NCBI GenBank assembly: GCA_018814465.1
Contig: JAHIZR010000228.1
Span: 173 to 64,172 of the forward strand
Direction of reading: 5' to 3'
Length of the DNA: 64,000 bases
Origin: a bacterium
GTDB lineage: Bacteria > Electryoneota > RPQS01
Position numbers and translations under genes: made by a program. This document shows, one piece after another, positions 502-47,442 of the stretch. The notes under the pieces were generated by a model. It saw only the letters and a program-made list of their open reading frames with translations. It did no database searches and was not told where the DNA came from. Each line of letters opens with the position of its first letter. Positions within the stretch are counted from its first letter, which is position 1.

Positions 502-1620
502 TTAGATACCGCTCAGCGCTTCCTTGGGAAGCGGTAGATCGGCGCTGGCTTTCACTTCAAGACGCTTTAGCATTGCAAGGTTTCGAATCGTCAAAGCCAC
601 TTCAGGTTTTTGCAGCGGAGGACGACGATGCTCTTTCCATGCCATGACCTCCCTAAGGACATCCTGCTCTGTAGGAGTATTTTTTGTGCGCATCGCAAGC
701 TCGTTTCCAGCAAATAGAACAGTGGCTACAATTTCCGCTTGCTGAGTACGCAATCTAACAAAGAGATCGGCTACATTATCCAGAGTTTTTTCCCAATCCG
801 ACAAGTGTTTAGCATATTCCTCCTTAGCGACTTCGTACGATGGCCCCACGCGCACCGCAAGCATCTGGCCTAATCGATTTTCGACAATCAGGCGATGATT
901 CATCAGGCGACTCTCGAGTCCCTTCAAACCTTCAGCGAATGGGCCGTAGCTTCCGCGCCGGAATTCCAATCCCGTCGGGATCCCCTGTAGGGTCGCTACA
1001 TAGGCAATTTTCTGGAACATGACGCGCCCGACCGGCCAGTGATATGGCTCGTCCTCGATTCGCTTCAAGATATCGACTAAGGCGATCCATGCCGGATTGA
1101 TCCGTTCCTTATAAGTATCGGGACGCACAACGCCCGTTCCAGTGTCCAGGAAGCTCAGCTGCATCTCCTCGCAAGGAGTACCGTGCGGCGCATATAACTC
1201 AACGTCAATTTCGAGGCGTTTAAGATAGCGGTTAAGTATGGGACCGACAATTCGCCATTCCAATCCGCCAAGTCCGCTTCCGAGCGGCGGAACTGCGATG
1301 GATTCGATGCCCCACGTTTTGTAGTGTGTTAGCAGGAATTCGAGCCCTTTTTCAATGTCCTCTATTCGCGAGAGCGAACGCCAGTGATCCTTTGTTGGGA
1401 AATTCAGAATCCAGCGATCCGGACTTGACTTGAAGAGATAGGGCTCCCCCAACTTGACTTCTCCTCGTTTACAACGGGTAGTGTAATCGGCGAACATCGC
1501 GGGATAGCGATTCTTGAACTCGAGCGCAATGCCTTTGCCCATCACGCCCACACAGTTGACAGTGTTAACAAGTGTTTGAGCTTTGGAAGCGAAAAGGTCG
1601 CCTGACATTACTTTGAGCAT
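502..1620 (-). CDS. darG: DarG antitoxin (N-terminal macrodomain ADP-ribosyl hydrolase plus C-terminal DarT-binding domain)
   Basis: Macrodomain motif NTVNCVGVMGKGIALEFKNRYP. 372 aa. Lies immediately downstream of darT on the same strand. Confidence 0.85.
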   Translation of the reverse strand: MLKVMSGDLFASKAQTLVNTVNCVGVMGKGIALEFKNRYPAMFADYTTRCKRGEVKLGEPYLFKSSPDRWILNFPTKDHWRSLSRIEDIEKGLEFLLTHYKTWGIESIAVPPLGSGLGGLEWRIVGPILNRYLKRLEIDVELYAPHGTPCEEMQLSFLDTGTGVVRPDTYKERINPAWIALVDILKRIEDEPYHWPVGRVMFQKIAYVATLQGIPTGLEFRRGSYGPFAEGLKGLESRLMNHRLIVENRLGQMLAVRVGPSYEVAKEEYAKHLSDWEKTLDNVADLFVRLRTQQAEIVATVLFAGNELAMRTKNTPTEQDVLREVMAWKEHRRPPLQKPEVALTIRNLAMLKRLEVKASADLPLPKEALSGI

Positions 1621-1632
1621 GATCGAGTTTCT

Positions 1633-2235
1633 CTATTTGAAGAACATTCTTGCATTAACAGTGATTGCCAACGTTGGTGCAAGCGCAGCGAGTCTTCGCC
1701 GAGCAGAATCGCACGAAACGTAGGCTCCCACAATATAATTATCCGGAATGACATTTGGAACCAAAACCTCAGCACACATTCTCGATTTGTGCTCCCATTC
1801 GGCAACTTCGTTTCCCGGATGTTTCCATGATTCTGCGAAGGTATCATTGCCAACCAGCGACAACCCGCTCGATGAAGGGCGGAATCTCGCATATTCGCTG
1901 GAAGCGTTGCGATCCGTAAAAACGACGTTAGGAAGATCAACCACAGTTGGTGAAATCTTCAGTACACAGAGTTCATCGCCAGAGCAAATACCTCCGTGGA
2001 TATCCTTGTACATCATCGGATTCCGCGCGTTGAAGTAGAGATTCACATAATCATGCAAGCGCATGCCCCCTGGAACCACTATAATCTTTCGGCGATCTTG
2101 AATCTCTGGCATAGCAACAGATCTATGCCTGATCTTACAAACACCCGTATGTGAAAGAATGCCGTGCGACAAGATCGACGGTACGTTTTCAATCGCGGTG
2201 ATGTAGTGTAGCTCTGACAGCCGAGATCGTTCCAC
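1633..2235 (-). CDS. darT: DarT ssDNA thymidine ADP-ribosyltransferase toxin (DUF4433). Start codon appears to be GTG.
   Basis: N-terminal HYITxxxNxxSIL motif, VFTDR motif and C-terminal catalytic Glu region (CAEVLV) typical of DarT. About 200 aa. Paired with a macrodomain gene. Confidence 0.82.
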   Translation of the reverse strand: MERSRLSELHYITAIENVPSILSHGILSHTGVCKIRHRSVAMPEIQDRRKIIVVPGGMRLHDYVNLYFNARNPMMYKDIHGGICSGDELCVLKISPTVVDLPNVVFTDRNASSEYARFRPSSSGLSLVGNDTFAESWKHPGNEVAEWEHKSRMCAEVLVPNVIPDNYIVGAYVSCDSARRRLAALAPTLAITVNARMFFK

Positions 2236-3643: not shown

Positions 3644-3970
3644 ATGAAGCTTTACAGATTCGAACGAGGAGACAAGGTCCGCCGCCGCGCGGAGTGCGGC
3701 GCGGCGAATCATCCCGCAATCGTCGAAGTGCTCGAATGCGACGAGTTCTGCCTTCGGTTCATCGGCGCTGGGGTTGATCATTTCGGAATTTACGATCCGG
3801 CAAACTATGAACTGGTCGAAGGCGAATGCAGCTACTGCAATGGGATCGGGCACGTCCTCGGGCGCTATTACGGCGAGGGGGAATTCGAGCGGCACACCTG
3901 CCTCGTTTGTCACGGCACGGGCCGGCTCAATTACGATGCATTGAAGGAAGCGAAAGGGATCGCGGCATGA
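3644..3970 (+). CDS. Hypothetical protein with a DnaJ-type CxxCxGxG zinc-finger pair
   Basis: CSYCNGIGH...CLVCHGTGR. Confidence 0.55.
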   Translation: MKLYRFERGDKVRRRAECGAANHPAIVEVLECDEFCLRFIGAGVDHFGIYDPANYELVEGECSYCNGIGHVLGRYYGEGEFERHTCLVCHGTGRLNYDALKEAKGIAA

Positions 3971-4332
3971 TTCGCATACTATTAGTCGAGGACGAACAGT
4001 CCATCCGCGAACCTTTCGCCGAGTTACTCCGCGAGTACGACTACATGGTAGTCACTGCGAATAATGGCTTGACGGCGGCGCAGTATCTCGAAATCATCCC
4101 GATTGATCTGGTCATCACCGACTCGGATATGCCGCTCTGCGACGCGATCGAATTGACGCGCCGAATTCGCAGAGCGAGCGCGGCCCTGCCGGTGATCGCG
4201 ATCTCCGGTGAATGGCAGAACGAAAAGCCGATGATGGAGGCGGGCGCGAATGCGTTTCTGCTGAAGCCGGTCGAAATCGAAGTGCTGATTGGAATGATTG
4301 AAGAGCTCACGAAGAAAGGAGTGGCGGCATGA
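3967..4332 (+). CDS. Stand-alone CheY-like response-regulator receiver (REC) domain protein
   Basis: MIRILLVEDE acidic pocket, DLVITD phospho-acceptor Asp and a conserved Lys in LLKP. ATGA overlap with the upstream gene. The ORF-track alternative at 3826 overlaps its neighbour heavily. Confidence 0.7.
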   Translation: MIRILLVEDEQSIREPFAELLREYDYMVVTANNGLTAAQYLEIIPIDLVITDSDMPLCDAIELTRRIRRASAALPVIAISGEWQNEKPMMEAGANAFLLKPVEIEVLIGMIEELTKKGVAA

Positions 4333-11189: not shown

Positions 11190-11487
11190 TGACCTAAAGA
11201 GAATCGATCAACTGATTCGAGAGCACATCGCGACCGGCGGCGTGCTTACGACCGCTAATCTTTTAGACACCGTGGCCGAATTGCGGCGGCTCGTTTTGAC
11301 AAACGCGCACCGGCTCCCGAAAGCCAAGTATCTCGCCGATCATCTCGGCGCCTGCGAGTCGTGCATTATCGAGCAGAACATCAAGGAAGAAGACAAGCTA
11401 CAGGAGCAACTGCCGCTCGATGCGCCCGAAGCGTTCGACGCGGAATTCGAAGGCGAAGGCACGCACGCGAGCCGGAAGGCGTCATGA
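11179..11487 (+). CDS. Hypothetical protein
   Basis: Overlapping start and stop with its neighbours. Confidence 0.5.
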   Translation: MTTNDLKRIDQLIREHIATGGVLTTANLLDTVAELRRLVLTNAHRLPKAKYLADHLGACESCIIEQNIKEEDKLQEQLPLDAPEAFDAEFEGEGTHASRKAS

Positions 11488-11975
11488 CGAAGCGCACTCC
11501 CGTCACGCGCGATACGCTGATCCGGCTCTGGAACGAGGAACCGCGCAAGGTGCCGCTCGCCGTAATGCTGACGACCGCCGAACTGGAGAGCGGGATCGGG
11601 TCCGGCAGGTACGACGCGACCGCCGAGCGTTATGAAGAGCACTTGAAGGCGCGGCGGCAGGATTGGTCGGCGGCGGATTGCACGAGCTACGGTTTGTTTC
11701 AGATACTTGGCATTAACTGGCGATCCATCGGCATAGAGTACGCGATCTACCCGGATCAACACATCGTCTTCGTCGCTGGCACGTCGCCGCTCTCGCTCGA
11801 TGATCTGCTTCGCGTGCAGATGCGAGCCTATGACCGGTTCATGGGCGCGCTAATCCGCAAGCACGGACTGCCCAAGGCGTTTCGGATCTATAATGGAGCC
11901 GGACCGGCAGCAGACCGATATCGTGACCGCGCGCAGAAAGTACAGGCACGACTCACGAAGGATCTCGTCGCATGA
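11484..11975 (+). CDS. Putative DUF3380-type N-acetylmuramidase (endolysin candidate)
   Basis: Motif TSYGLFQILGINW resembles the SWGxxQIMGFN motif of DUF3380 muramidases. Start at the ATG at 11484. Confidence 0.45.
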   Translation: MTKRTPVTRDTLIRLWNEEPRKVPLAVMLTTAELESGIGSGRYDATAERYEEHLKARRQDWSAADCTSYGLFQILGINWRSIGIEYAIYPDQHIVFVAGTSPLSLDDLLRVQMRAYDRFMGALIRKHGLPKAFRIYNGAGPAADRYRDRAQKVQARLTKDLVA

Positions 11976-13663
11976 ACGAACTTAAATTTACGCTCGGAAC
12001 CGGCATCACTTCCCGCGCGGCGATTACGACCGACATCCATAAACTGATCGTGACGCGAATGGTGATTCAAGCGAATTCCGGCGCGGGTAAATCGCGGTCG
12101 ATGCGCAGAATCCTCGAACAATGCTTCGGGAACGCGCAGGAGATCGTGTTCGACCCGGAAGGCGAATTCGTTTCACTCGCGGAGAAATTTGACTTTCTCA
12201 TCGTCGGCAAGGGCGGTCATCTGCCGGTGCGCGTCGATACCGCCGAGCTGCTCGCCCTGAAGCTGCGGCAGTTGGGCATTTCCGCCGTGCTCGATCTTTC
12301 GGACCTCCGCCCGCTCGAACGCACAGCTTACATGAAGGTCTTTCTCAACTCTTTGATGCTCGCGCCGAAGGCTCCGGAACGGCCTTGCCTCGTGGCGATT
12401 GACGAGGCGGACATGTTCGCGCCGCAGAGCCGGGAGTCGCAATCCACGGAAGCGGTCGTCGATCTGTGCGTCCGGGGCCGCAAACGCGGTCTGTGCCCCA
12501 TTCTCGCGGTCATGCGGCTGTCGCAACTACACAAGGACGCGGCGGCGCAGTGCAACAACTACCTGATCGGACGCACCGCGCTCGACGTGGATATTCATCG
12601 CGTCGTCGACATTCTCGGCTTTCAGCGATCCCGGGACCGGGTCGCCACGCTGAAAACTCTGAAACCCGGCGAATTCTTTTTCTTCGGCCCGGCGAGCAGC
12701 TCGCACGACGTCGAACTGCTGAAAGTCGGTGACGTGCAAACCTATCACCCGGATGCCCGCGCGCGCGAGGTCAAGCCGGTATCGACGCAAAGCCCGGCGG
12801 TCAAAAAAGCGCTCGCGCAACTGCAGGATTTGGCGGAAGAGGCGGAAGAGAAGCGGCAGACCGAACAGCAGTTGCGGGACAAAATCCGCGAACTGGAAAC
12901 GCAAGTCCGATCTTTCGGGAAAAACGCCGCCGATCCGAAAATCTTAAGCGACTTGCGCAACCAGAATCTGCAACTGCGTGCCGAACTGAAAGCCATGCGG
13001 GCACGGTATCATTTCATCTTGACCGAGATGAATGTGATCAACGACAAAATGGCCGGACTGATCGAGCGCGAAAAGGCAGAGAACCTTGACGAGATCGCCG
13101 AGCTTCCGTTCATCGACGAGCCGCCTGCCGTTAGCCGTCAATCCGCTTTGGAGGCGGTCTCCCCCACGCCGTTATCGCACTACAGCCAGCAATCAACCAT
13201 CGATTCGCTGACGCCGCTGGCCGCGAAGTTGCTGCGCGCCGTCGTGCAATTCCATCCGAAGCCGGTGAAACTGCGCCGTGCCCTGCTCATCGCGGGTGTC
13301 TCCCCGCGAAGCAGCAACGTCGGGAAGTTCAAGAAAGACTTGGTCGCTCAGGGATATGTCGAGATCAACGGCCAATGGATCACCGCGACAAAGGCCGCGC
13401 TCGCGGCGGTCGGCGATTATACGCCCTTCCCCACCGACGCTAAGTCGATGATCGCCTCGGTTAAGTCGCTCTTCGATCCGAGCACGGCGAACCTGCTGGA
13501 AGCCATCTATCAGCACCCTGGACTCGTGAAGGGCGCGTTGCTGGACTTCGCGCAAATCAGCCGCACGTCGAGCAACGCCGGACGCTGCTTCAAGGAGCTC
13601 CGCGAATACGGCTTGATCGAACAGCGCGGCGAACGATTCTACTTGAGTGAGGAATTCAGTTAA
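11972..13663 (+). CDS. HerA/FtsK/DUF87-like P-loop NTPase with coiled coil and C-terminal winged-helix domains
   Basis: Walker A QANSGAGKSRS and Walker B LVAIDEADMF. A coiled coil follows, then repeated wH-like segments. Confidence 0.6.
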   Translation: MNELKFTLGTGITSRAAITTDIHKLIVTRMVIQANSGAGKSRSMRRILEQCFGNAQEIVFDPEGEFVSLAEKFDFLIVGKGGHLPVRVDTAELLALKLRQLGISAVLDLSDLRPLERTAYMKVFLNSLMLAPKAPERPCLVAIDEADMFAPQSRESQSTEAVVDLCVRGRKRGLCPILAVMRLSQLHKDAAAQCNNYLIGRTALDVDIHRVVDILGFQRSRDRVATLKTLKPGEFFFFGPASSSHDVELLKVGDVQTYHPDARAREVKPVSTQSPAVKKALAQLQDLAEEAEEKRQTEQQLRDKIRELETQVRSFGKNAADPKILSDLRNQNLQLRAELKAMRARYHFILTEMNVINDKMAGLIEREKAENLDEIAELPFIDEPPAVSRQSALEAVSPTPLSHYSQQSTIDSLTPLAAKLLRAVVQFHPKPVKLRRALLIAGVSPRSSNVGKFKKDLVAQGYVEINGQWITATKAALAAVGDYTPFPTDAKSMIASVKSLFDPSTANLLEAIYQHPGLVKGALLDFAQISRTSSNAGRCFKELREYGLIEQRGERFYLSEEFS

Positions 13664-13735
13664 TGATTTCGAAGCAGTGGTCGATTTGACCAGAATAATC
13701 CGTAAACACGAATCACCAATTACAGAGGAAAGCAA

Positions 13736-14014
13736 ATGAGTCCCCAACATCTCGGCAAGCACGCCCAGGACAAAATCACCGGGTTTAAAGGTATCGTTAC
13801 CGGCGAGATCGCCTATATCACCGGATGCGATCAGATCCTCATTCAGCCGCAGGGTCTCGACGACAACGGCAAGCCGTTCGAAAGCCGTTGGTTCGACATC
13901 TCCCGCTGCGAAATCGGCGACGAGATTCTTTACGAGCCTTTGCGGCAAGTAGAGCCGGGCGCGGATCGTCCCGGCGGCCCCGGCGACGAGAACCCAACCG
14001 ATCACGTTCGATAG
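13736..14014 (+). CDS. Hypothetical protein
   Basis: AGGAAAG RBS. Confidence 0.5.
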   Translation: MSPQHLGKHAQDKITGFKGIVTGEIAYITGCDQILIQPQGLDDNGKPFESRWFDISRCEIGDEILYEPLRQVEPGADRPGGPGDENPTDHVR

Positions 14015-14026
14015 TTATTCAGAGCC

Positions 14027-14386
14027 ATGCCGATCCATTCTGACGACAAGCATCGCTACCCGCCGAACTGGAAGGTGATTCGCGCGGCGATTCTGAAACG
14101 CGCCACCAACAGCAACGGCGATCAGCAGTGCGAATGCCGCGGCGAATGCGGCTTGCATCACGGCAAGCGCTGCAGCGAATTGAACGGCTATCCGGCGGAA
14201 TGGGCGAAGGGCACGACCGTGCTCACGATTGCTCATCTCGATCACAACGCTGACCCTGATAACCACTCGGATGCTAACCTGAAGGCCATGTGCCAGAGGT
14301 GCCATTTACGGTATGATTCGAAGCAACATCAAGCGAATGCGCGAAAAACACGGCGCGCCAAGAAGGCGTGCGGAGAGCTTCTGTGA
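14027..14386 (+). CDS. HNH endonuclease
   Basis: Motif HLDHNADPDNHSDANLKAMCQRCHLRYD plus an upstream Cys pair. Confidence 0.75.
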   Translation: MPIHSDDKHRYPPNWKVIRAAILKRATNSNGDQQCECRGECGLHHGKRCSELNGYPAEWAKGTTVLTIAHLDHNADPDNHSDANLKAMCQRCHLRYDSKQHQANARKTRRAKKACGELL

Positions 14387-15237
14387 AATGGTTTAAGCAC
14401 GATACGGACGGTCACGAATCCGAAAAACTCGTTGCATTGAGATCAAAGTTTGGCTGGGACTGGCTGGCGCGCTGGTACGTGCTGCTCGAAATGGTGGCGG
14501 CTAAGATGGACGACTCCGACCGCTGTCATCTCGAATATCCGATCAAGGAATGGTGCTATCAGCTGGACTGTACTCCGCGCCAATTACTGGCGTTTATGAC
14601 CTATCTTGACGCCGAAAAAATTGGTGGAAGTACGGTCAAAGTTGACCCGGAGTTACTCCAAAGTTTCACCCAAAGTTCGCCTGAAGTTACTCCAAAGTTA
14701 CGTCAGAGTTCGGCTGAAGTATCGCCAAGGTTACGCCGAGATTCCGTGGCTATTACGTCTAAGTTACTTCGGATTGACATACCTAACCTGCTGAAAAAGA
14801 GAGATGATAGCTCTCGAAAAGTCCGGAAAAAGTCCAGTAAAAGTCCCGGCCAGAGCGTAGAGCGTAGAAATTCTTCTAACGAAGAATTAAAAGAGCGTAG
14901 AGCGAAGAGCGAAGAGCACGCAAACGATTCCGAACCGAACATCGCTCCATCGCCTTTTCCAAAACCTGAGTCGGAAGATCAGTTTTTGAACGATCTCGAC
15001 GAGTTCATGGATCAACTTAACGAAATCGTCAAGCTCACCGAACACGACCGGCGCGGTATTCGATTTGACATCCTCCAACGCGGCAAGAGTGACGACCTGT
15101 CATGGATTCTGGATCAACTACGAGCGGCTAAGACCGACGGGCGGTTGAACGTCGAGAAACACGGCATCCGAAACGCTACGGCGTTCATTCGCAGCAAGAT
15201 TCAGGAGCTGTCCGGGAACAAACCACAAGGCCCTTAG
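14368..15237 (+). CDS. Putative phage replication initiator (Lin1244/DUF4373-like N-terminal domain). The gene contains iteron-like repeats.
   Basis: N-terminal segment WFKHDTDGHESEKLVALRSKFGWDWLARWY resembles the DUF4373-like N-terminus of phage initiators. Periodic AAGTT repeats and an AT-rich stretch lie within the gene. Confidence 0.5.
   Translation: MRRASVKWFKHDTDGHESEKLVALRSKFGWDWLARWYVLLEMVAAKMDDSDRCHLEYPIKEWCYQLDCTPRQLLAFMTYLDAEKIGGSTVKVDPELLQSFTQSSPEVTPKLRQSSAEVSPRLRRDSVAITSKLLRIDIPNLLKKRDDSSRKVRKKSSKSPGQSVERRNSSNEELKERRAKSEEHANDSEPNIAPSPFPKPESEDQFLNDLDEFMDQLNEIVKLTEHDRRGIRFDILQRGKSDDLSWILDQLRAAKTDGRLNVEKHGIRNATAFIRSKIQELSGNKPQGP
14650..14930. repeat. Candidate phage origin of replication: about 8 phased copies of CNAAGTTAC, 3 copies of GAAAAGTCC, AGAGCGTAG repeats and an AT-rich stretch, all inside the initiator gene
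   Basis: Direct repeats at roughly 10-12-bp spacing read from the sequence. Confidence 0.5.
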
Positions 15238-15292
15238 CGAGAGATTACTTCTTTCGCCGCGCAATCCCGTCATGATCACTTAACTCACTCAC

Positions 15293-15556
15293 GTGACACA
15301 ACTTAATTTTTTTATGACAAAACAGCGCAATTTCTGCTCGGTCAACTGTGCAGAAAATTGGCCGGAGCGCATCTCGCGACTCCTTGCCGCTTACGGCTGG
15401 AGTCAAGCGCGCTGTGCCATGCGCTTGCAGTGTCACGTGCAGACCGTCGGCAACTGGGTACATGGCCGGACGGCGCCGATTCAAGCCTATCGCAGCATGA
15501 TCGAAGAACTCGAATTTCGTAAAGGACTCAGAGCGCGCGACGATGAAACGACTTGA
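15293..15556 (+). CDS. XRE-like HTH protein
   Basis: ISRLLAAYGWSQARCAMRLQCHVQTVGNWVHGRTAP. Confidence 0.55.
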   Translation: MTQLNFFMTKQRNFCSVNCAENWPERISRLLAAYGWSQARCAMRLQCHVQTVGNWVHGRTAPIQAYRSMIEELEFRKGLRARDDETT

Positions 15557-16103
15557 GATGCAAAAGTACATGCAGGGGATCAACGACCTCACCGAGACGG
15601 AATACAAATTCCTGCTGGCTTACTGCGGGATCGATCCGCCGGGAAGCGGGCCGCGCGACGCGCAGCGCGCTTATCTGGCGATCCGGCCCAACGTGAAGGC
15701 ACTCTCGGCGCAGGTCTCCGGACGGCTGATGCTGAAACGCATTCGCGAGAAGGGCGCATTGCCGGAGCTGTTCGAATTACGCAATCTGGGTCTCAATCGC
15801 GCCGTGGATCTGCTCGGCGAATGCGCGCAAGCGGAAACCGTCAAGATCATCCGGCACCGCAACGGCGCCTGGGATTACGTTTACGCGCCGGACTACCGCA
15901 CGCGCTTTCGCGCGGCGCGGCTGCTGCTCGAACTGCACGGCATGATCGGCCCCGAAGCACAAGTGAATATCCACGTCGACAACCGCAAGACGTTCGCGCA
16001 AGCCATCGCGGAACAGGCGGAGGCGGACGAGCGCAAGAAACTCGAACACGACCAAGGATTCAAGAGCGATGCCGAAGACGCGGACTTCTGCGAAACGGAA
16101 TGA
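15543..16103 (+). CDS. Putative terminase small subunit
   Basis: Position immediately upstream of the large terminase. Size about 186 aa. Confidence 0.5.
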   Translation: MKRLEMQKYMQGINDLTETEYKFLLAYCGIDPPGSGPRDAQRAYLAIRPNVKALSAQVSGRLMLKRIREKGALPELFELRNLGLNRAVDLLGECAQAETVKIIRHRNGAWDYVYAPDYRTRFRAARLLLELHGMIGPEAQVNIHVDNRKTFAQAIAEQAEADERKKLEHDQGFKSDAEDADFCETE

Positions 16104-16398
16104 CGAACCGGAACGCCCGCGCGTCCTGCACTGCGAGCAGAAGCGCGACGACGGCTTTCCGCTCGGCGCGGAAACGGTCGTATTCAGCATCACAGCGGAA
16201 GTGTCCGAACGCGAATATCAGCGCATCGCCGACGCCTGGGAAACCGGCGCGGACTACGCGCTCGAAGTGGCCGGCAAAGCGCACGTCGGCACGGTCAAAG
16301 GCAATATCGTCCTCACCGAGCGCGGCACGGCGATATGGACGGTCCAATTCGACCTGCACGAGGATCCCGGCCAATGGGCGGCGCTCCTGAAATCATAA
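16069..16398 (+). CDS. Hypothetical protein
   Basis: By eye, third-position G/C usage reads as coding in this frame. Overlaps both neighbours. Confidence 0.45.
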   Translation: MPKTRTSAKRNDEPERPRVLHCEQKRDDGFPLGAETVVFSITAEVSEREYQRIADAWETGADYALEVAGKAHVGTVKGNIVLTERGTAIWTVQFDLHEDPGQWAALLKS

Positions 16399-17867
16399 TC
16401 GTCCGCAATCAGAAGCTCAAGGACGCGGAGTTTCAGTATCGCGACGACCCAGAAGCGTTCTCCGCCGACGTGCTCGGGCTCATCCTGTGGGATAAGCTCG
16501 TCGAATACCTCTGGAGCGTCGCGCAGCATCAGAACACCGCGCTCAAAGCCTGCTTCGCCTCGAGCAAGACGTTCGGCTTAGCGGCGATCTGTCTGTGGTT
16601 TCTGTTCACGCGCTACAACAGCAAGGTCGTCACGACCGCGCCGACGCGGCGGCAAGTGCGCGACCTGCTCTGGGCGGACATCGCGAGTCTGCACGCGCAC
16701 AGCAAAATTACGCTGGGCGGCGAATGCCTCACGGAACGGCTGCAGTTAGGGCGGCGCTGGCTGGCCGTCGGCTTTACGGCGAATAAGCGCAATCAAGCGA
16801 CGTTTCAAGGCTATCACGCTTCCGGCGGCTTACTCTACGCCATCGACGAAGCGACCGGCGTCGCGCCGAATATCTTCAACGCCCGCGACCGCATCATCGT
16901 CAGTCCCGAGGATCGCTTCGTCTGCATCGGCAATCCAACCGATCCGAATTGCGAATTCGCGCGCGCGTTCAAGGACCCGACCTTCCACAAGCTGCAAATC
17001 ACCGCCTATGAGACGCCGAACGTCCGGGCGGGCCGGACGATCATTCCGGGCATGATGACCGTGGAATGGCTGCGCGACAAGGAAGCGCGCTGGAAAGATC
17101 GCATCCCGCAGCTCTGGCTCAGTATGGTCATGGCCGAATTCCCGGAAGGGCGGGACGACGCGCTGATCCCGCTGTCGTGGATCGAAGCCGCGATGCTGCG
17201 CTGGGAAACACTGCGCGAACAGCAAGCCGTGCTGGACGAAGCGCGGAAGATTCTCGGCATCGACGTGGCTACGACCGGCACCGACTTCTCCGTCTTCGCG
17301 CCGCGGCTTGGTCAATGGGTGGAAGAGCTGCACTCCTACAGCGGCAAGGACACGCAGGAGCTCGCCGCGCTCGCGCAGATCGAGCACGGACGCGGCTACG
17401 AGCTGGCCGTCGATGCGATCGGCGTCGGCGCGGGCGTCGCTGACGCGCTGCTGCAAGCGGGCGTCCCCGTGCATAAAGTCATCGGTAGCGCCGCGAGCGA
17501 TAAGAAAGACAGTACCGGCTCCTTCGGCTTCACGAACGTGCGCAGCGAACTGCACTGGTCGATGCGCGAACGGCTCGACCCGGCCGGTCCGCTACCGCTG
17601 GCGTTGCCGCGCGACGAACTGCTGCGCGAGGAGCTCGCGGCGCCGACATGGAAACCCGTGATCGGCGGGCGCGTCCAAGTCGAGCCGAAAGACAAAGTGA
17701 AGGAAAAACTCGGCCGTAGTCCAGATCGCTCCGACGCGCTCATCAATACGCTGGCCGTCGAGAACTTCGCGACACCGGCTTACCTGCCCCCCGCCCCGTC
17801 AGCGGATCGGCAGCAGCGCCAACAACATCAACCGACTCCATCAACAGAACGAAAGCGAAAATGGTAA
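16335..17867 (+). CDS. Terminase large subunit (ATPase plus nuclease)
   Basis: Walker A-like FASSKTFG, Walker B LLYAIDEATG and a C-terminal RNaseH-like region GIDVATTGTDFS. An alternative start is at 16374. Confidence 0.8.
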   Translation: MDGPIRPARGSRPMGGAPEIIIVRNQKLKDAEFQYRDDPEAFSADVLGLILWDKLVEYLWSVAQHQNTALKACFASSKTFGLAAICLWFLFTRYNSKVVTTAPTRRQVRDLLWADIASLHAHSKITLGGECLTERLQLGRRWLAVGFTANKRNQATFQGYHASGGLLYAIDEATGVAPNIFNARDRIIVSPEDRFVCIGNPTDPNCEFARAFKDPTFHKLQITAYETPNVRAGRTIIPGMMTVEWLRDKEARWKDRIPQLWLSMVMAEFPEGRDDALIPLSWIEAAMLRWETLREQQAVLDEARKILGIDVATTGTDFSVFAPRLGQWVEELHSYSGKDTQELAALAQIEHGRGYELAVDAIGVGAGVADALLQAGVPVHKVIGSAASDKKDSTGSFGFTNVRSELHWSMRERLDPAGPLPLALPRDELLREELAAPTWKPVIGGRVQVEPKDKVKEKLGRSPDRSDALINTLAVENFATPAYLPPAPSADRQQRQQHQPTPSTERKRKW

Positions 17868-17870: not shown

Positions 17871-19322
17871 ATGGGACTTCTTGAAAAACTCGGCTGGCGG
17901 CGCCCCGTCGCCGTGCTCGGCCTGCCGCTGCGCGAGAGCGACTCCGGTCGCTGGATTCGCATCGGCGGCGGTCTGCGCTATAACCGCGATATGTCCGCGA
18001 CGGATATCTACGAAACGTGCGACCGCGCCTTTCGCGCCTGGCGGCTCAATCCGTTCGTCAAGCGCTTAACGGAAATGTGGGTGAACTTCGTCGTCGGCGC
18101 CGGCCTGACGTTCACGGCTAACGACGAGCGCGTGCAAGCCGTGCTGGACGACTTCGTAAAACGCAACAAGCTCAACCTGCGCATGAAAAAGCGCGCGCGC
18201 GAAGCGTTTCTGTTCGGCGAACTGATCTGCGCGCCGAACGTCAACGTCGCGACCGGCCACACGCGGCTCGCCTTTCTCGATCCGCTGCAAGTGAGCAAGA
18301 TCGAGCTCGATCCTTTCGACGGCGATAATCCCGTCGCGATCGTCGTCTCCGGACAGGACGGACAGGCGCTTAGCTTGCCGATCGTGCGCGAAGACCTCGC
18401 CAGCGCCGCCGCGCTGCGCATTCCGGAACTCTACGGCGCTAAACGGCCCGGCGGGTTCAACGCGCCGTTGCTCACGCTGGGCCGGAAAGTCGGACGCGCC
18501 TTTTACCTCGCGTTCAACAGCATCGTCGGCTCGACGCGCGGCACGTCCGACCTGCTTACGATCCTCGACTGGTGCGCGGGCACGGAAGATCTGCTCTGGG
18601 AATTTCGCGCGCGGGCGGAAAGCCAGAACCGGCTCTTTGGCGTGATCACGATCAAGGGCGCGACACCCGCGCAATTACGCAAGTACCGCGACAAGGATTC
18701 GGCGGAGTACATTCCCCCGCCCGGCACGGAAAAGGAAGCGTGGGCTTACGCGAACGAGAATATTACCTTCGCCTTCGTTAATCCGCAGCTCGGCGCGAGC
18801 GATATCGCGGAAGCCATTCGCCTGTTCAAGTCGATGATCGAGATCGGCGGCGGTCCGCCGGAACACTACCTGGGACAAGCCAAGGAGATGACCTACGCCT
18901 CGGCGCAGGATGCCTCGAATCCCTTCCTGCAGCAGATCCGCTCCGGTCAGCAGGAATTCACGGAATTCTGGCTGGAGATCGCGCAGTACGTCGTGGATCA
19001 GAAGCTGATCTTCACGAACGAGCTGGACGGTATCACGGACTTGACGGTTGCCGTCAAAGCGCCGGAAGTCGTGCCGGAGGACGCGAAGTATAAAGCGGAG
19101 CTCGCGAATCAGTTCACGCAGGTCGTTGTGGCGTGGCGCGCGAATAATTGGGTCACCGACGAGCAGGCGATTGACCTGATGCATCAGATCGCGCAAGCCG
19201 CCGGGATGAAAGTCAAAGTCGTAGAGCAGATCATCGGCCCGGTCGCCGCGCAGCAGAACTGGGCGCGGGAAGCCTTGCGGAGGATCAGCAATCCAGAATC
19301 AAACACGAGGTTACAGCAATGA
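17871..19322 (+). CDS. Portal protein
   Basis: About 480 aa, immediately after the large terminase. Overall portal-like sequence. Confidence 0.7.
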   Translation: MGLLEKLGWRRPVAVLGLPLRESDSGRWIRIGGGLRYNRDMSATDIYETCDRAFRAWRLNPFVKRLTEMWVNFVVGAGLTFTANDERVQAVLDDFVKRNKLNLRMKKRAREAFLFGELICAPNVNVATGHTRLAFLDPLQVSKIELDPFDGDNPVAIVVSGQDGQALSLPIVREDLASAAALRIPELYGAKRPGGFNAPLLTLGRKVGRAFYLAFNSIVGSTRGTSDLLTILDWCAGTEDLLWEFRARAESQNRLFGVITIKGATPAQLRKYRDKDSAEYIPPPGTEKEAWAYANENITFAFVNPQLGASDIAEAIRLFKSMIEIGGGPPEHYLGQAKEMTYASAQDASNPFLQQIRSGQQEFTEFWLEIAQYVVDQKLIFTNELDGITDLTVAVKAPEVVPEDAKYKAELANQFTQVVVAWRANNWVTDEQAIDLMHQIAQAAGMKVKVVEQIIGPVAAQQNWAREALRRISNPESNTRLQQ

Positions 19323-38201: not shown

Positions 38202-41156
38202 TTACCGCATCAATACCATCTTCTTCGCATCAACGAAGTTGCCGGCTTCCATGCGGAAGATATAGAGTCCGGACGCGACATCGTGACCCGCACTATTCTT
38301 GCTATTCCACGTCACAGTATATGTTCCTGCGACATGAATGTTGTCAAGCAAAGTAGCAACTCGTTGTCCGAGCGTATTGTAAACATTGATTCGAACATGA
38401 GTATTTTCGGGGATATCGTAACGAATCTGCGTCGTCGGATTGAACGGGTTGGGGTAGTTCTGATAGAGGGCGAACCTATCAGGGATCGCGTTGTCCCAAT
38501 TCGACGGTCTTGATCCTTCGATTGTGCCTAACAAACCGATCAGATACTGTTCCCTCGTGAGTCCCTCTTCGAGGGATTCGATTCGCATCGATTGTGGAAT
38601 TCGATTCGCGAAAGACTCGTCAAGGCTACCATCATCCCAGTCAATGCTCCCCGCAGCCATTTGAACCAGATTCAGATCTGTCGCCACAAAAATAGAATCC
38701 TCAAACGCCAGACTGTCTTCCAGCAATTCAGCACAAAGATTAAGGGCGGATTCGAAAGCGTTTTTGTTCACGTAATAATTGACGAGAATTCGCTTACCGT
38801 GCAGTACGGCATCATAGGATGCACCATGTTGAGCGATCAACGCATTAATATAGCTCGGAATCCACTCTTCGCCTTCAATAAGATGCACGTCCGTAGTCAC
38901 GAGGCGGCTTGCCGCGCTCCAGATAGTTGACGGATCTTGCGCATGTTCGATCACGTAAAGATACAATGCCTGTGCTTCAGCAAACATCTCTTCATTTTCC
39001 AGATCGATAGCGTAAAGGAGCGTATCTACAATCAATGAGTCTTCATCGAGCGTATGTCCCGATCTGCCTGCTGTCGGTCCCGGCTGGATGCTCGATGTTC
39101 CACTTCCGCAGACACCATACGGAGTCGGAGATGGACTTGAAAAATCCCAATAGGAAGCATCAGAAGGTCTGAAATAGTTGATCTCAGGGGTCACGTTCCA
39201 ATACTGAATGATTGCTATAAACTGCGATACAAAAGGCGGGTAGTCTACCCAGCTCATGTATTTGATTTCGTGCGAATTATTCTGGATAAAATCGTTAGGT
39301 CGCTTGAGGAGCACAGGAAGAGGTCCCTTGCCTTGAAAAACCAGTAAGTAATCCGAGTCATCGCGGAACTCGTTAGCATAATTCTCTGAATTCTCCTGTC
39401 CAAACACTGGATTGCAGCCGGTCGCGGAATAAACTGTCGTCCTATAGGTCGAGGTTTCAGATGCGAGATCTTGGAATCGACAGCAGGTGAAATACGGATT
39501 GCAGGTTTCCGTATTCAGCATGACTCCATATTTGCTGGCTTCGCCTTCGAATAGACATTTGTCGAATGAACCTGATGTTTTTGAGATGTAAGTATTCGCA
39601 TAGCTACAATTACGAACCGTCGTGTTGTTGATTTTGACGTAACAGTTGCTGGTTTGTAGACCGGGCAGACCCTCGATATTCTCGATCAGACATTCGCTTA
39701 CATATTGCGTTTCCTTTGGGCTTCCAGTGAGTAAAAGTCCTCTCCCGTCGAATTGACAATAAACGATCGAAACCGGATGTGACAATGAGGTCGGAATAGG
39801 TTTATCGGTGTAAATGGCTGCCTTTGCACTTGCGTTTATGAACCTGGCTCCTTCAATCGAAACCTCTCCATTCACTTCCATGCAGTACCACTTTTCGCCT
39901 TCATCCATGGCGTCGAAGGTTACCATCTTCGAGGGAGTCCCATTCACGATCAAGGTTGCGCCTTGATCGACAATGAATGTGACATCCTGATCGAGTAAGA
40001 CTTCGACTCCCGCGTCGATTACAAGCTGTTCGCCCGGCCTGACTGCATAATTGCTTGTGATGTATATGGGTGAATGGCTGATTGTCCAATGATCGGATGG
40101 ATAAACCATCGGGTTGTCGAAGGAATGCCCGTTGACGCTATAGGATTCTATTTTCCAGCCATAAGATGGATCCAACGCGAAGCGGACAAGAATTAGGCGA
40201 CCACAGACTTCTCGAATATGAACGACCGGCTCAACCAGTTCTACTTCATTTCGCGTGGCTTGACTGAACGTATCAAACCGATCCCAAAGATAGAGTTTCT
40301 GCTGAAATCGGTTGAAGCCGATAACACCTAAGCCTTGGATGATGGCGGATTCATGTACGTTCATCCCATCGAAATCGTTGGACAACGCGAGTGCTTGAGA
40401 TTCGAGTGAAATCGCAGGATTTGAATTGCCGGCGATCAAATGATCAACGCGTTCGCTGCCTCCGTCACTAACATACAGATTAATGCGGTTATTGCTGTCC
40501 ACAAAGCCCGAGATATCGCTCAACCACTGATAACCGTCGTCGAATACTCCGGGATGTCCATAGGATGCGAGAATACTACCATTCAAATCTGTGCGAAAGA
40601 TTGACTTGGCATTCTCATCAACGATGAATAGACTGCCATTCTCATAGTGAATCCCGATTGGTCTTGTGATCAAGGGATTTGTGATGGCACTCTCGTATCG
40701 AAATTTGCCCGTGATTCCATCGAATTTGTAAATACCGATGGTTGCGCCACCGCGGAATACAACCGCGACACGGTCATCCTGCGGACTGAAGTAGGTTTGA
40801 TTCTGAATCTTGCACAGGGCGCGGGGATAGTTAAGGTTTTCCGGAATCAGACAAGAGCGCGCAACATCTTCGCGCTCTAAGGGTGCGTCGTGTTTTATGC
40901 GAAAGCATGTAAACAATGTCCAACTGTCTTCCAATACAACAACACGATAGTCGGCGGGCGAGAGCTTTAAGACTTCGATGTCCACCGGATGCATGATACC
41001 GAGATCCGTGGAATCAGTGATTTCGAATAGCCATTCAGACGAAATCTCGCTCAAGCCCGGAATACCGAACATGTTTTCCTCACGATCCAGCGTAATCGTT
41101 GCTTGAGCTTGGATCGTAAGCAGCACTAGCAAGGTCAATGTGATATATCTCTTCAT
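38202..41156 (-). CDS. Large secreted protein with a T9SS (Por) C-terminal sorting domain
   Basis: C-terminal segment YPNPFNPTTQIRYDIP...GLYIFRMEAGNFVDAKKMVLMR is a canonical T9SS CTD. N-terminal signal peptide. Confidence 0.8.
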   Translation of the reverse strand: MKRYITLTLLVLLTIQAQATITLDREENMFGIPGLSEISSEWLFEITDSTDLGIMHPVDIEVLKLSPADYRVVVLEDSWTLFTCFRIKHDAPLEREDVARSCLIPENLNYPRALCKIQNQTYFSPQDDRVAVVFRGGATIGIYKFDGITGKFRYESAITNPLITRPIGIHYENGSLFIVDENAKSIFRTDLNGSILASYGHPGVFDDGYQWLSDISGFVDSNNRINLYVSDGGSERVDHLIAGNSNPAISLESQALALSNDFDGMNVHESAIIQGLGVIGFNRFQQKLYLWDRFDTFSQATRNEVELVEPVVHIREVCGRLILVRFALDPSYGWKIESYSVNGHSFDNPMVYPSDHWTISHSPIYITSNYAVRPGEQLVIDAGVEVLLDQDVTFIVDQGATLIVNGTPSKMVTFDAMDEGEKWYCMEVNGEVSIEGARFINASAKAAIYTDKPIPTSLSHPVSIVYCQFDGRGLLLTGSPKETQYVSECLIENIEGLPGLQTSNCYVKINNTTVRNCSYANTYISKTSGSFDKCLFEGEASKYGVMLNTETCNPYFTCCRFQDLASETSTYRTTVYSATGCNPVFGQENSENYANEFRDDSDYLLVFQGKGPLPVLLKRPNDFIQNNSHEIKYMSWVDYPPFVSQFIAIIQYWNVTPEINYFRPSDASYWDFSSPSPTPYGVCGSGTSSIQPGPTAGRSGHTLDEDSLIVDTLLYAIDLENEEMFAEAQALYLYVIEHAQDPSTIWSAASRLVTTDVHLIEGEEWIPSYINALIAQHGASYDAVLHGKRILVNYYVNKNAFESALNLCAELLEDSLAFEDSIFVATDLNLVQMAAGSIDWDDGSLDESFANRIPQSMRIESLEEGLTREQYLIGLLGTIEGSRPSNWDNAIPDRFALYQNYPNPFNPTTQIRYDIPENTHVRINVYNTLGQRVATLLDNIHVAGTYTVTWNSKNSAGHDVASGLYIFRMEAGNFVDAKKMVLMR

Positions 41157-41171
41157 GGGTTTCCCCTATTG

Positions 41172-42122
41172 TTAGTCGTCTTGTTGTTCCTGTTCGGCAA
41201 GCAATTCTCTCAGGTGTTCGATTTTCCCTTGAAATCTTATTGACATTTCATAGTTTCTTTCACCATTCGGATCATACTTAGCAAGTAAGGGGCTGCCATG
41301 ACTAACAGATAGTACTCCATAATCTGTCCAAAGTTTTTCCAGATATTCCATGGCTTTGTCGTAACGGCGCAGGTGCAATGCGGATTCATAGGCAAAATAG
41401 AATCCACCAGGATCTGTCAATCCTTCGCCAATTAGGGAGTCGGCTAAACTGATAGCGTGATCGTAGTAAGATGTCTTGAATGAAACAAAAATCTCGCTTG
41501 AGATGATTCTTGCTTGATCGAAGCTATTGCATGGTTCGAGAATTTCCCAAGCAGGCGAGATTGCCGACTCTTTCGACTGGCCATCTCCAGTAAAGCGAAC
41601 GCGGAATGATATTGTATGTCCGGCAAGTGTCTCGGGAATACGAGCTACATACTGCTTTGAATTTCGTTGTGTTAATTCCGAGATTCTCGAACCCTCTTCT
41701 TGCAATTTATCAAACAGCCTATTCAGTGAACTTAATCCGTACGTGATGTTCATTTGGCTGAAGAGACTCTCATCTGGTACAAAGGTCGTGCCTTGCACGT
41801 AATCCTTTGCGAATTCCAGCATATAATCCTCCGGCCATTCAGAATCCAAAGGCTCTAAGGATTGATCATATTCATTTCTTACAACCAGAAGCAAGCAAGA
41901 TCCTGCAAGAATGCCGGGACGTTCATATTCATCTGCCTCAAGAGTGTAAGTGCTGGCGTCGTCGCATGCACTGCCATAAACAAGTGCGCGCTGCGTGATA
42001 TTTAGTGGATCGATTGCGTACGTACTTGCCGTGTATAGAGATAGGCAAAGACAAATCGCAACAAGTGATCTATAGAAGTAATAAGGCAATTCATACCTCC
42101 TGTTTCGGTCTGTTGATTGCAA
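41172..42122 (-). CDS. Secreted hypothetical protein
   Basis: Hydrophobic N-terminus. Confidence 0.55.
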   Translation of the reverse strand: MQSTDRNRRYELPYYFYRSLVAICLCLSLYTASTYAIDPLNITQRALVYGSACDDASTYTLEADEYERPGILAGSCLLLVVRNEYDQSLEPLDSEWPEDYMLEFAKDYVQGTTFVPDESLFSQMNITYGLSSLNRLFDKLQEEGSRISELTQRNSKQYVARIPETLAGHTISFRVRFTGDGQSKESAISPAWEILEPCNSFDQARIISSEIFVSFKTSYYDHAISLADSLIGEGLTDPGGFYFAYESALHLRRYDKAMEYLEKLWTDYGVLSVSHGSPLLAKYDPNGERNYEMSIRFQGKIEHLRELLAEQEQQDD

Positions 42123-42127
42123 AATAG

Positions 42128-44119
42128 CTACTGCCTATACCTAATGGAATCAGCACATTGTACACCTAAGGTCGGATCATTGATATATCCCCATTTATTG
42201 TCAGAATGATTGGGATCATCACTCCACACATCAATCCATACATTCCAAGCAGATTCACATGTCAGTCCATCATTACAATTATCATGTCGAACATATCCTA
42301 CACATTCAGGTCGACAAGGACTATAGTGTCGAAGCTTCTCATTCATCATCACACAACCGTACAGATTCCCAGAATATTGTGGACTGTGATCCGGGGCATT
42401 TATTGTATGACCCATTTCATGTGCAAGTGTGCGACGCAACACAATTTCACAAACACTCTCGAATAGTAACCGATAATCTGAATCTGGTCCCCAGCCTCCT
42501 ACACCGGTATCTGGATCATGGCGCCACCAGTCCTCAGCAATTTCATTAAAGATTCTATTCCTGTCTATTAGCACGTGTGCGTTCCCACATATGCCATAGC
42601 CTCTTAAATGGTTGACTGTACCATAGTAGTTCCAACCATAATTTGCCTCAATCGGGAAATTCCTTACTCTAAGTGCTACTTGGTCGGAGGACCTCACCCA
42701 ATCATCACCATTATGTTGATCATCTACGTGGGTTGAATCAGCAGGAGAAGGAAATGCGAGAGGTGGTCGTGGAATTGTAAAAGAATTTGCTTCCCAGTGC
42801 CCCGGCCCTGTTTCTGGTTGTTCCCATCTCCCTTGATAGGTGTCAATACATTCATATCTTAAGTTGCCGTAAGGATCTGGAGCTGCTCTTCTTATTCGTT
42901 CAGTAAGTACTTCGTTTGTATCACCATAGGTAACAACCAGACTGCAAGCTTCCACTCTTGCTGAATCTGTTCCAGGATATTTCATGAACTTCATCATCTC
43001 CTGTAATCTGGGCAAGAAACCTTCAATACTAGCATCATGAAAGAGACTATCTTGATCTATTACAAGGATATTCCGTCTTGTTTTAATCGTGTCTAGATCA
43101 AGCCTTAAATGTGAACCATCCAAGCATCTAAATCCACGATACTCCTCCCATAGTGTTAAGCCGTCGCTATCCGGATCGGCATCACTTTTCCAATCTTGGT
43201 AACCTTGGGGTATTTTAATAGAGGTACCGCCGCCATTCGGGACGGTCGCCGGGACTCCCCGCACTCTATTGTCAAATACTTGAACTGCACTGATGCTTCC
43301 CTCTGCCGCATAATCGAGCAGTCGAACGTATACTTCGTATGGTTCATCCGCTTCTAAAGTCACAATCAATGAACAAGAAGCAGTATGGTAACGATACAGT
43401 GGCGGAAGGGCTGCCCCTTCAAGAATCATGTCCGCCTTCTTCTCGGATTGGTCATCCGGTACCGGAGCATTCATCGCTATTCCTTCATAGCAGGAACTTC
43501 CAAGCGTAACCATTACCGACATCGGATAGGTGGCCCTTAGCTCGTAGCATAAAGTACTGTCATACATTGGCATATAGCGAAGGCTGTCAACCTCTGTTGT
43601 GTCCGGATTATTGCCACAAGGTCTCAGAGTCAGAGAGATAGGGTCATAAGGAAAACCAACCCAATCGTCCGGTTCTTTTGCAATATGCTTACAGTCTCCG
43701 ACCTGCTCCCAGATACAGTACCGTGAATGCACAGAGCAATGCAGTACCGACCATCCGCCCTCCCAATTCGTTTGACAATGATAGTAATAATGGGAACCAC
43801 CGGGCGGAGTATCACAGAGTCCGTATGCGCAACCTTCACCCGGTTCAAGAAATATTCCATTCGATGCAGAATTACAGGATGGTCGATCACTGCAGTTACA
43901 ACCGGTTGTTGAACACCCCCATGAAAATCCGCCGCCTAAAGAATAATATATCTTTCGAATACGGATTGTCTCGCCGTTTCCAATATCGTAATCTTCGAAG
44001 ACAATTCCATCAATGGTCCGATACAATCTCGGTGGCCATTGAGCGAGAGCATCGCTACAGACTAATATCAGGCATAAAGCTGGTATTATCAAGAGCAATT
44101 TGGAACGAATTTTATCCAT
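42128..44119 (-). CDS. Secreted zinc metalloprotease (metzincin-like HEMGHxxxxxDH)
   Basis: Signal peptide MDKIRSKLLLIIPALCLILV. LAHEMGHTINAPDH near the C-terminus. Confidence 0.6.
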   Translation of the reverse strand: MDKIRSKLLLIIPALCLILVCSDALAQWPPRLYRTIDGIVFEDYDIGNGETIRIRKIYYSLGGGFSWGCSTTGCNCSDRPSCNSASNGIFLEPGEGCAYGLCDTPPGGSHYYYHCQTNWEGGWSVLHCSVHSRYCIWEQVGDCKHIAKEPDDWVGFPYDPISLTLRPCGNNPDTTEVDSLRYMPMYDSTLCYELRATYPMSVMVTLGSSCYEGIAMNAPVPDDQSEKKADMILEGAALPPLYRYHTASCSLIVTLEADEPYEVYVRLLDYAAEGSISAVQVFDNRVRGVPATVPNGGGTSIKIPQGYQDWKSDADPDSDGLTLWEEYRGFRCLDGSHLRLDLDTIKTRRNILVIDQDSLFHDASIEGFLPRLQEMMKFMKYPGTDSARVEACSLVVTYGDTNEVLTERIRRAAPDPYGNLRYECIDTYQGRWEQPETGPGHWEANSFTIPRPPLAFPSPADSTHVDDQHNGDDWVRSSDQVALRVRNFPIEANYGWNYYGTVNHLRGYGICGNAHVLIDRNRIFNEIAEDWWRHDPDTGVGGWGPDSDYRLLFESVCEIVLRRTLAHEMGHTINAPDHSPQYSGNLYGCVMMNEKLRHYSPCRPECVGYVRHDNCNDGLTCESAWNVWIDVWSDDPNHSDNKWGYINDPTLGVQCADSIRYRQ

Positions 44120-44523
44120 TTATCCCTCGTAAATATATGGTTTTGCTGTCAGAAAGCACGTATACTCAATGGAATGCAACGAAAAAACGAACGCCTGCCT
44201 AATCGAAAACCGATAGGAAGTCGTTCGCTTCATATTGTCACCCGTAAGTTGTTATACTGTGGTTGGTTTATAATAGTTAGCAATATCTAATTGGATAGTC
44301 AAGGGTCAGGCATCTCTTTTATAAATCTTTCAGATGTGTAAAAAATAGCTCGGATCGTGCAATATTGATAAATGCTGTCCTATTATATTATTAGATAAAT
44401 ATATACTTACACATTGAAGGCAAATCTATTACTGCGTTCAAAAGGGTACAACACTGCAAAAAAGAGAAAGGGCGAAACAGTTTGCTAACCATTTCGCCTC
44501 TCTATATTCCTCGGACGAACTGT

Positions 44524-47366: not shown

Positions 47367-47442
<76 letters not shown>

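Follow-up and report, generated by a model that had tools for sequence, protein, structure and literature searches.

The subject of this study is a 64,000-nucleotide stretch of bacterial DNA (the window; contig JAHIZR010000228.1 of assembly GCA_018814465.1, positions 173 to 64,172), in which a prophage-like block carries a gene for a 284 aa replisome-organizer-like protein whose middle part is built from tandem repeats. With a probability of roughly 70 %, positions 14637-14930 are the replication origin of this prophage, embedded in the part of its own initiator gene that encodes the central linker of the protein. We favour this interpretation because helically phased repeats and an adjacent unstable tract lie in the coding sequence for a linker between a predicted winged-helix domain and a putative recruiting domain, and because the upstream repeats and the protein diverge together. 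The architecture of the element, its nature as a DNA-level feature, its conservation across a protein family, the fold of the protein and the genomic context are direct results of the analysis. A likely phage origin within an initiator gene had been suggested by an earlier sequence-only reading of the window, and all the computational tests run lend support to that suggestion.

Tandem repeats and a low-stability tract within the gene

Tandem Repeats Finder (TRF) identified periods of 11 bp (7.8 copies, 14651-14737) and 33 bp (3.0 copies, 14637-14737) in the gene, the 33-bp super-period having the higher match rate (77 % vs 63 %). This result confirms the tandem repeats at helical-turn spacing that had been described by eye. 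Set out in 11-bp register, the array comprises 12 units over 14637-14768, here called iteron set A (Table 1), which encodes residues ~86-129 of the initiator. The motif RAGTT begins at 14639, 14650, 14661, 14673, 14684, 14695, 14706 and 14761, with four degenerate units between the last two positions. The pair RAGTT-N6-RAGTT has five matches on both strands of the 64 kb, all of them within the set A array (0.25 expected), and the lag-11 self-identity of the array (0.58, z = 7.6) is the top value among all 132-bp stretches of the window at lags of 4-40. The 'about 8 copies' of CNAAGTTAC originally counted hold as a degenerate consensus (eight on the forward strand with up to two mismatches), but exact copies number only two.

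A second group of 11-bp units, iteron set B, starts at 14817, 14828 and 14839. It had been described as three copies of GAAAAGTCC, which in fact occurs exactly only once; the word present three times at 11-bp spacing is AAAAGTCC, reported by TRF as AAAAGTCCAGA in 2.7 copies. All three matches to GAGCGWAGAGCG in the window fall within the element (0.08 expected). The AGAGCGTAG repeats were correctly seen, with three exact copies and two further copies of GAGCGAAG. These GAGCGWAG 7-mers flank on both sides an AT-rich perfect palindrome that the sequence-only reading did not mention. The palindrome forms the sole helix in the centroid fold of the region as single-stranded DNA (ssDNA), and is a candidate nucleation point for unwinding. 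A search of the remaining 64 kb for a second site, comparable to oriR of phage SPP1, found neither the iteron pair nor the 7-mer pair again.

The palindrome lies in a purine-skewed segment (14746-14930) that ranks among the lowest 0.3-0.6 % of prophage windows for nearest-neighbour stability, and is a candidate DNA-unwinding element. Its least stable 40-bp window starts at 14865, and no other 150 bp of the prophage are as rich in purines as those that start at 14790. The initial description of the stretch as A/T-rich is accurate relative to the rest of the prophage, though the effect is modest in absolute terms. A DnaA-dependent origin was considered separately and rejected: TTWTNCACA with up to one mismatch has 63 matches in the window against 61 expected, including a single chance-level match at 14955.

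The repeats are a feature of the DNA, and the EVTPKL-type peptide repeats and the linker are by-products of it, because neither 11 nor 7 bp is divisible by three and the units are read in all three frames. The peptide repeats noted earlier are indeed present in the translation (SPEVTPKLRQS / SAEVSPRLRRDS / VAITSKLL), and GAAGTTACT, AAAGTTACG and AGAGTTCGG are translated in successive frames as E-V-T, K-L-R and Q-S-S. When codons were resampled for the same peptide, 0 of 5000 versions attained the observed lag-11 identity, and synonymous-codon permutation of set B at this locus gave p < 0.001. Across the 31 non-redundant homologous loci used for motif enrichment and codon permutation, p <= 0.05 was reached by 13 for set A and by 18 for set B, where ~1.5 would be expected by chance.

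The 33-bp super-period, together with insertions of 33 and 45 bp between relatives, fits growth of the array only in frame-preserving steps of ~33 bp, or three units. One such insertion (11 aa, 33 bp) separates proteins P0003 and P0004 and falls exactly at the ATCGGCAGAAC array of P0003. The window protein and its closest relative (locus L001, protein P0002) differ by 15 aa, which is 45 bp, or three 11-bp steps and one 12-bp step.

A conserved layout in a family of initiator-like proteins

The comparison covered 44 homologous loci gathered from Logan, JGI, ENA, IMG/VR and metagenome scans, with offsets measured from the codons of the invariant PNLL motif. TRF repeats cover 9.6 % of in-gene bases in these loci compared with 1.75 % outside, and the repeat layout recurs at the matching gene position in ~40 homologous loci. 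Three classes of offset were apparent. Repeats of 11 bp (sometimes 21/22 bp) lie at -110 to -45; a second 11-mer set lies at +31 to +47, and in most clades, the window's not among them, consists of two to three copies of a palindromic AACTTGCAAGT type; and purine-rich repeats of 6, 7 or 12 bp (TAGAAG, AGAAGT, AAGAGCG, AAGAATA) lie at +68 to +86. The upstream repeats are clade-specific in sequence (AAGTTAC, CAGAAC, AGTTTCAAA, AACTGAAAAC, CCGTTAT, GCACCGC, GAAACTT), whilst their period and position are kept.

In alignment A1, the residues encoded by set A stand as an insertion after the N-terminal domain and before IPNLLKKRD, shared only with the closest homologue, P0002. At the place of set A, L001 has a perfect AGTTACTCCGA in 3.5 copies with the same core as the window, and other repeats stand there in L006 (ATCGGCAGAAC, 3.5 copies), L005 (GCACCGCCTAC, 3.3 copies) and L003 (GCAACTGAAAA, 5.4 copies). 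Three loci (L012, L014 and L045) have six copies of a 21-bp repeat containing CAAAGTTAC, which includes the core of the window's set A. Three copies of AAACTCCGGAG in L007 lie downstream of the PNLL codons, at +36, the position of set B, and L006 carries the same AAGAGCG 7-mer array as the window at a matching offset (+70). Among the 31 non-redundant loci, AACTT/AAGTT is present in 27 and AAACT/AGTTT in 29, with a 4.8-fold enrichment of these words in the central region. Copies of the AAGT core on the same strand most often have a spacing of 11, next 22 and then 33.

Two further features of these loci concern the codons of the landmark motif and the repeats downstream of it. The I-P-N codons (14782-14790) read ATACCTAAC in five of seven close loci and differ by one base in the other two, CCT being present in all seven; they are thus near-invariant at synonymous sites despite ~30-55 % protein identity (L001-L008), and may represent a further DNA-level element. 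A ACATACCT-like word recurs near the PNLL codons in L006 and L007. At +31 to +47, most family members (seen in loci L018-L047), but not the clade of the window, have two to three 11-mers that contain the perfect palindrome ACTTGCAAGT, with (TAGAAG)n or (AGAAGT)n at about +70. As both kinds of repeat are conserved across clades with differing upstream iterons, they may be read by a host factor or by a conserved surface of the initiator.

The window protein had been described as 'DUF4373-like'. Pfam returned no match at E < 0.1 for the 284 aa protein; at a relaxed threshold, Lin1244_N (PF14297, formerly DUF4373) matched with E = 0.23 and 12.6 bits, below the gathering cut-off of 25. By sequence, the protein is best described as a distant relative of Lin1244_N and not a formal member. 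A word-indexed search found nine relatives only, and a profile search recovered 2998 clusters at 50 % identity with E <= 1e-3, of which 176 reached E <= 1e-30. Lin1244_N was matched at E <= 1e-3 by five of the nine close relatives and by 45 of 108 aligned wider relatives. The C-termini of these 108 belong in part to known families (Phg_2220_C in seven, DnaA_N in three, DnaT in one), a pattern in which the N-terminal domain stays constant while the modules attached to it, which would link to the replication machinery, are exchanged. The isolated C-terminal domain of the window protein had no match in Pfam.

PHROG 2562, annotated 'replication initiation protein', matches residues 6-45 (E = 1e-5), and PHROG 270, of like annotation, was also matched. 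These matches, the Lin1244_N relatives, the swapped C-termini and the replication-gene neighbourhoods of homologues support the view that the family behaves as a phage replication initiator. In viral contigs L010, L011 and L016 the gene comes after genes for an Erf/Sak recombinase and an exonuclease, and in L010 a primase/helicase gene is immediately next. The early operon on the P0009 contig has it behind a helix-turn-helix (HTH) regulator and ERF. Two cultured Vibrio phages have 10.5/11-bp repeats inside the gene, with short AT-rich repeats after them; the annotations of the Vibrio phage homologues are 'DUF4373' and 'origin specific replication initiation factor / replication protein O', and the annotated DUF4373 proteins of Vibrio phages were the only GenBank phage matches. 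Cultured Vibrio phage relatives include 1.155.O, with a DUF4373 gene and 3.6 copies of an 11-bp repeat, and Athena1. A scan of genome contigs returned only one distant locus, in a Desulfovibrionaceae metagenome-assembled genome. In the related viral contigs L009 (6487-7396) and L016 (6528-7538), 36-bp/108-bp tandem arrays (AAGAAACCCAATAAA...AGCGAGTCA) lie ~2 kb past the homologue of the initiator, on the downstream side of a gene resembling transposases.

AlphaFold2 with a deep alignment gave a predicted local distance difference test (pLDDT) score of 77.8 overall, with values above 90 in the N-terminal domain, whose predicted winged-helix fold resembles the N-terminal domain of RepA_N. A helical C-terminal domain spans residues 197-276. 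Confidence was low for residues ~97-115, which come from part of set A, and pLDDT fell below ~60 for residues ~141-196, the coding sequence of which contains set B, the palindrome and the 7-mers; the interdomain linker encoded by the low-stability segment is probably disordered. The strand just before PNLLKKRD packs onto the N-terminal domain in the model. A Foldseek search of the PDB with a first, shallow model gave no significant match (best E = 0.6), RepA and RepE initiators being among the top rows, and sequence searches of the PDB with profiles A1 and A2 gave no match.

Proposed mechanism, alternatives and genomic context

From these results we infer binding, unwinding and recruitment in the following order. 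The N-terminal winged-helix domain would bind the 11-bp iterons of both sets, with one site for each helical turn. Because the sites repeat at this interval, they would face roughly the same side of the DNA, and cooperative binding would bend or wrap it. The resulting stress would open the adjacent purine-skewed, low-stability tract that holds the palindrome and its flanking 7-mers, and the C-terminal helical domain would then recruit helicase-loading or priming proteins of the host.

Several points weigh against an origin at this site. The AT-richness of the tract is modest in absolute terms (GC content 0.41-0.45), and several intergenic spots of the prophage are equally or more unstable. Pfam and PHROG scans recognized no phage-encoded helicase, loader or primase in the prophage. 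GC skew shows no switch at the repeat site, a test that is uninformative because all the prophage genes lie on one strand. The local 33-bp permutation of set A, which is degenerate here, gave p = 0.15, although the whole-array test is decisive. In the literature searched, no origin has been mapped, and no binding or origin activity shown, for the Lin1244_N/DUF4373-type family. Lastly, the gene stands between HNH and terminase genes, where the cos sites of HNH-dependent packaging systems lie, so that part of the region may serve in packaging.

A bolder version of the origin reading, which we regard as doubtful, is that the three-part layout represents a distinct mode of origin opening for non-AAA+ winged-helix initiators. 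The layout consists of clade-specific spacerless 11-bp iterons, the second 11-mer set (AACTTGCAAGT-like in most clades but not in that of the window) and the short purine-rich repeats at a fixed offset of about +70. On this reading, one monomer per helical turn would form a continuous filament on the duplex, the filament would extend onto the purine-rich repeats as ssDNA in the manner of DnaA-trios, and the linker would be wholly dictated by the DNA code.

It is unlikely that the protein binds the repeats for regulation only (autorepression, handcuffing copy control or exclusion of related phages) and that the origin lies elsewhere. Such roles have precedents in plasmid iterons, which also serve control functions (PMC5043065), and in lactococcal phages, cloned ori regions of which give a phage-resistance phenotype (PMC8965321); equally unstable AT-rich spots also exist in intergenic parts of the prophage. 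However, with no other copies of the iteron pair or 7-mer pair in the 64 kb, no second origin for the same protein is visible, and the coupling of repeats, low-stability tract and purine-rich repeats at fixed, family-wide offsets is the anatomy of an origin, not of an operator.

Because the gene lies directly between the HNH and putative terminase genes, the alternative to be taken most seriously at this particular locus, albeit quite an unlikely one, is a packaging recognition site (cosB- or pac-like) to which the small terminase, the HNH endonuclease or both would bind. Terminase small subunits bind arrays of phased repeats, the cos sites of HK97-like phages lie between HNH and terS genes, and the L001 and L007 homologues are also just upstream of terminase genes. 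Against it, the repeats track the initiator family and not the terminase, since the L010, L011, L016 and P0009 contigs have the in-gene layout within early recombination/replication modules with no terminase nearby. Moreover, the repeat position is fixed relative to the domain boundaries of the protein, and the upstream repeat co-varies with the protein clade.

That the region has no function as DNA, and is a low-complexity disordered linker expanded by replication slippage, is very unlikely. The peptide is modelled with low confidence and is probably disordered, the insertion is absent from most homologues, and the downstream 6-bp periods of some relatives could be dipeptide repeats (EVEVEV, ELELEL). 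Against this, the 11- and 7-bp periods place one DNA word in three frames, the codon tests described above (0/5000 for the window; 13/31 and 18/31 loci) show more DNA periodicity than the peptide calls for, and from clade to clade the repeats change in sequence but keep their period and position. A plasmid-type partition centromere of an extrachromosomal prophage is scarcely credible: head-to-tail 11-bp repeats do resemble ParR-type centromeres, such as parC of plasmid R1 with its 11-bp iterons bound by ParR, but Pfam and PHROG scans found no ParM, ParA or ParR-like gene among the neighbours, the element lies in contiguous host-like DNA of a long contig, and the repeats are always inside an initiator-like gene.

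The prophage-like block occupies ~3.8-37.5 kb of the window, has a GC content of ~0.60 and carries every gene on the forward strand; the flanking DNA is that of the host (GC 0.44-0.53). The longest open reading frame (ORF) for the initiator (14368-15237) starts at GTG 14368, but the true start is likely GTG 14383, because it is preceded at 6 nt by a GGAGA Shine-Dalgarno sequence and shares bases with the HNH gene's stop codon (GTGA). The HerA-like ATPase appears to have a coiled coil in its middle part and, C-terminally, two repeats that look like winged helices, and its gene sits between the muramidase-like and HNH/initiator genes. Pfam returned no match for the putative small terminase or for the other unannotated prophage proteins, and no integrase was identified among the ORFs scanned. 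An Rfam scan of 13500-16200 found no RNA family, and scans for sigma-70 promoters and terminators gave nothing above chance.

Table 1. Coordinates of the repeat element, its gene and other features of the window
Feature	Position	Strand	Details
Iteron set A	14637-14768	+	~12 units of 11 bp, head to tail, with a single 12-bp step; RAGTTAC core; 33-bp super-period
Low-stability purine-skewed segment	14746-14930		GC 0.41-0.45 vs ~0.60 in prophage
PNLLKKRD codons	14782-14805	+	Invariant motif; fixed landmark between sets A and B (alignments A1, A2)
Iteron set B	14817-14846	+	AAAAGTCC x3, 11-bp spacing
Left 7-bp repeat block	14852-14868	+	AGAGCGT x2.4
AT-rich perfect palindrome	14869-14888		AATTCTTC-taac-GAAGAATT; 8-bp arms; between the two 7-mer blocks (inverted-repeat finder)
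Right 7-bp repeat block	14891-14917	+	AAGAGCG x3.9, read in three frames as ERRAKSE
Initiator (replisome-organizer-like) gene	14383-15237	+	284 aa; NCBI MBU1921107.1
Muramidase-like gene	11361-11975		
HerA/FtsK-like ATPase gene	11972-13663	+	563 aa; DUF87 E = 1e-12; weak match to PHROG 'terminase large subunit' family
92-aa ORF			Between HerA-like ATPase and HNH endonuclease genes
HNH endonuclease gene	14027-14386		PHROG 1571, E = 1e-25
HTH protein gene	15293-15556		3' of initiator gene
Probable small terminase gene	15543-16103		From position and sequence pattern only; no family match
Large terminase gene	16335-17867		
483-aa ORF	17871-19322		At portal position
DarT gene	1633-2235	-	Pfam DarT, E = 2e-39
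Macro-domain DarG-like gene	502-1620	-	

Other features lie at or beyond the edges of the block. A CRISPR (clustered regularly interspaced short palindromic repeats) array at 1-488, running off the start of the window, has eight copies of the 36-bp repeat ACTGTAGCTGACCGATGCCTGCCCGCAAACCACAAC with spacers of 29-30 bp, none of which matched the prophage or the rest of the window at up to five mismatches. It adjoins a DarTG toxin-antitoxin/defence pair (502-2235, reverse strand). A response-regulator receiver-domain protein (3826-4332, forward strand, E = 1e-21) marks the left edge of the block, near which an HTH_3 repressor-like protein is encoded on the opposite strand (2458-2862), and a tRNA-Pro gene lies at 47368-47442. 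On the reverse strand at 38202-46785, a low-GC block (0.44-0.48) has genes for large secreted proteins that contain LVIVD repeats and Por_Secre_tail domains, the latter for type IX secretion sorting, which suggests that the host belongs to the FCB (Fibrobacteres-Chlorobi-Bacteroidetes) group or a relative of it.

Significance and comparison with known embedded origins

If the origin reading is true, origins would be predictable from sequence alone for a large and mostly metagenomic family of phage initiators (2998 clusters), by an annotation rule that looks for the PNLLKKRD codons, 11-bp repeats flanking them on both sides and purine-rich repeats at about +70. Orthogonal pairs of initiator and iterons could also be drawn from the family to build replicons for bacteria that have been little studied. 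The locus shows cleanly how a DNA element can dictate the sequence of a protein, with one 11- or 7-bp word read in three frames. Whilst the literature searched describes no embedded origin for the Lin1244_N/DUF4373-type family, an origin inside an initiator gene has been known since lambda, and to the specialist the present case is a neat extension and not a surprise.

The comparison with lambda made in the sequence-only reading was apt. The iterons and AT-rich tract of ori-lambda lie centrally within the O gene, and two extra iterons in Shiga toxin (Stx) phages add 13 residues to the O protein (PMC7466680, PMC5043065). The window likewise has its origin candidate in the middle of the initiator gene, and its extra iterons add ~15 residues relative to L001. 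Lambda differs in having four 19-bp inverted-repeat iterons that bind O dimers, whereas the units here are direct, 11 bp long and without spacers; furthermore, the window protein has no Phage_rep_O match in Pfam, and no gene for a P-like helicase loader lies 3' of it.

Further cases come from phages of Firmicutes. In SPP1, oriL lies within gene 38 and combines direct repeats with an AT-rich unwinding element (PMC6316719), and ORF13 of TP901-1 and Rep2009 of Tuc2009 bind repeats within their own genes (PMC8965321). The genes for G38P, ORF13 and Rep2009 resemble the window gene in having direct repeats beside an AT-rich element, which there serve as phage origins. The hosts are different, however, and the window protein shows no sequence similarity to these initiators and no Phage_rep_org_N or DnaD-type match in Pfam.

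The plasmid initiator pSK41 Rep offers a parallel at the level of domains: the four Rep boxes in the centre of rep are bound by the N-terminal domain of the protein, a winged helix, its central domain, encoded by the origin, is a dispensable linker and its C-terminal domain binds DnaG (PMC5703833). The features of this class recur here, as direct repeats cluster inside the initiator ORF (~12 + 3 11-bp units), an unstable A+T-rich tract lies next to them, to modest effect, and the repeats occupy the linker-coding part between the N- and C-terminal domains, as judged from the AlphaFold2 models, alignment A1 and the swapped C-termini. Nevertheless, the window protein has no RepA_N (PF06970) match in Pfam and no sequence match in the PDB, and pSK41 is a Firmicute plasmid with four Rep boxes, in contrast to a phage with contiguous 11-bp units and a C-terminal domain without detectable family.

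The nearest relatives by sequence are the Lin1244_N proteins, which have the N-terminal WFKHD...G..G...LE motif region in common with the window protein; those annotated as such in Vibrio phages also have in-gene 11-bp repeats, although the window protein itself falls below the family cut-off. Overall, the locus appears to work in the same way as the lambda/SPP1/TP901-1/pSK41 class, yet by sequence its product belongs to none of those protein families. The principle is old; what is distinctive is the use of contiguous 11-bp units in a layout that is fixed across the family.

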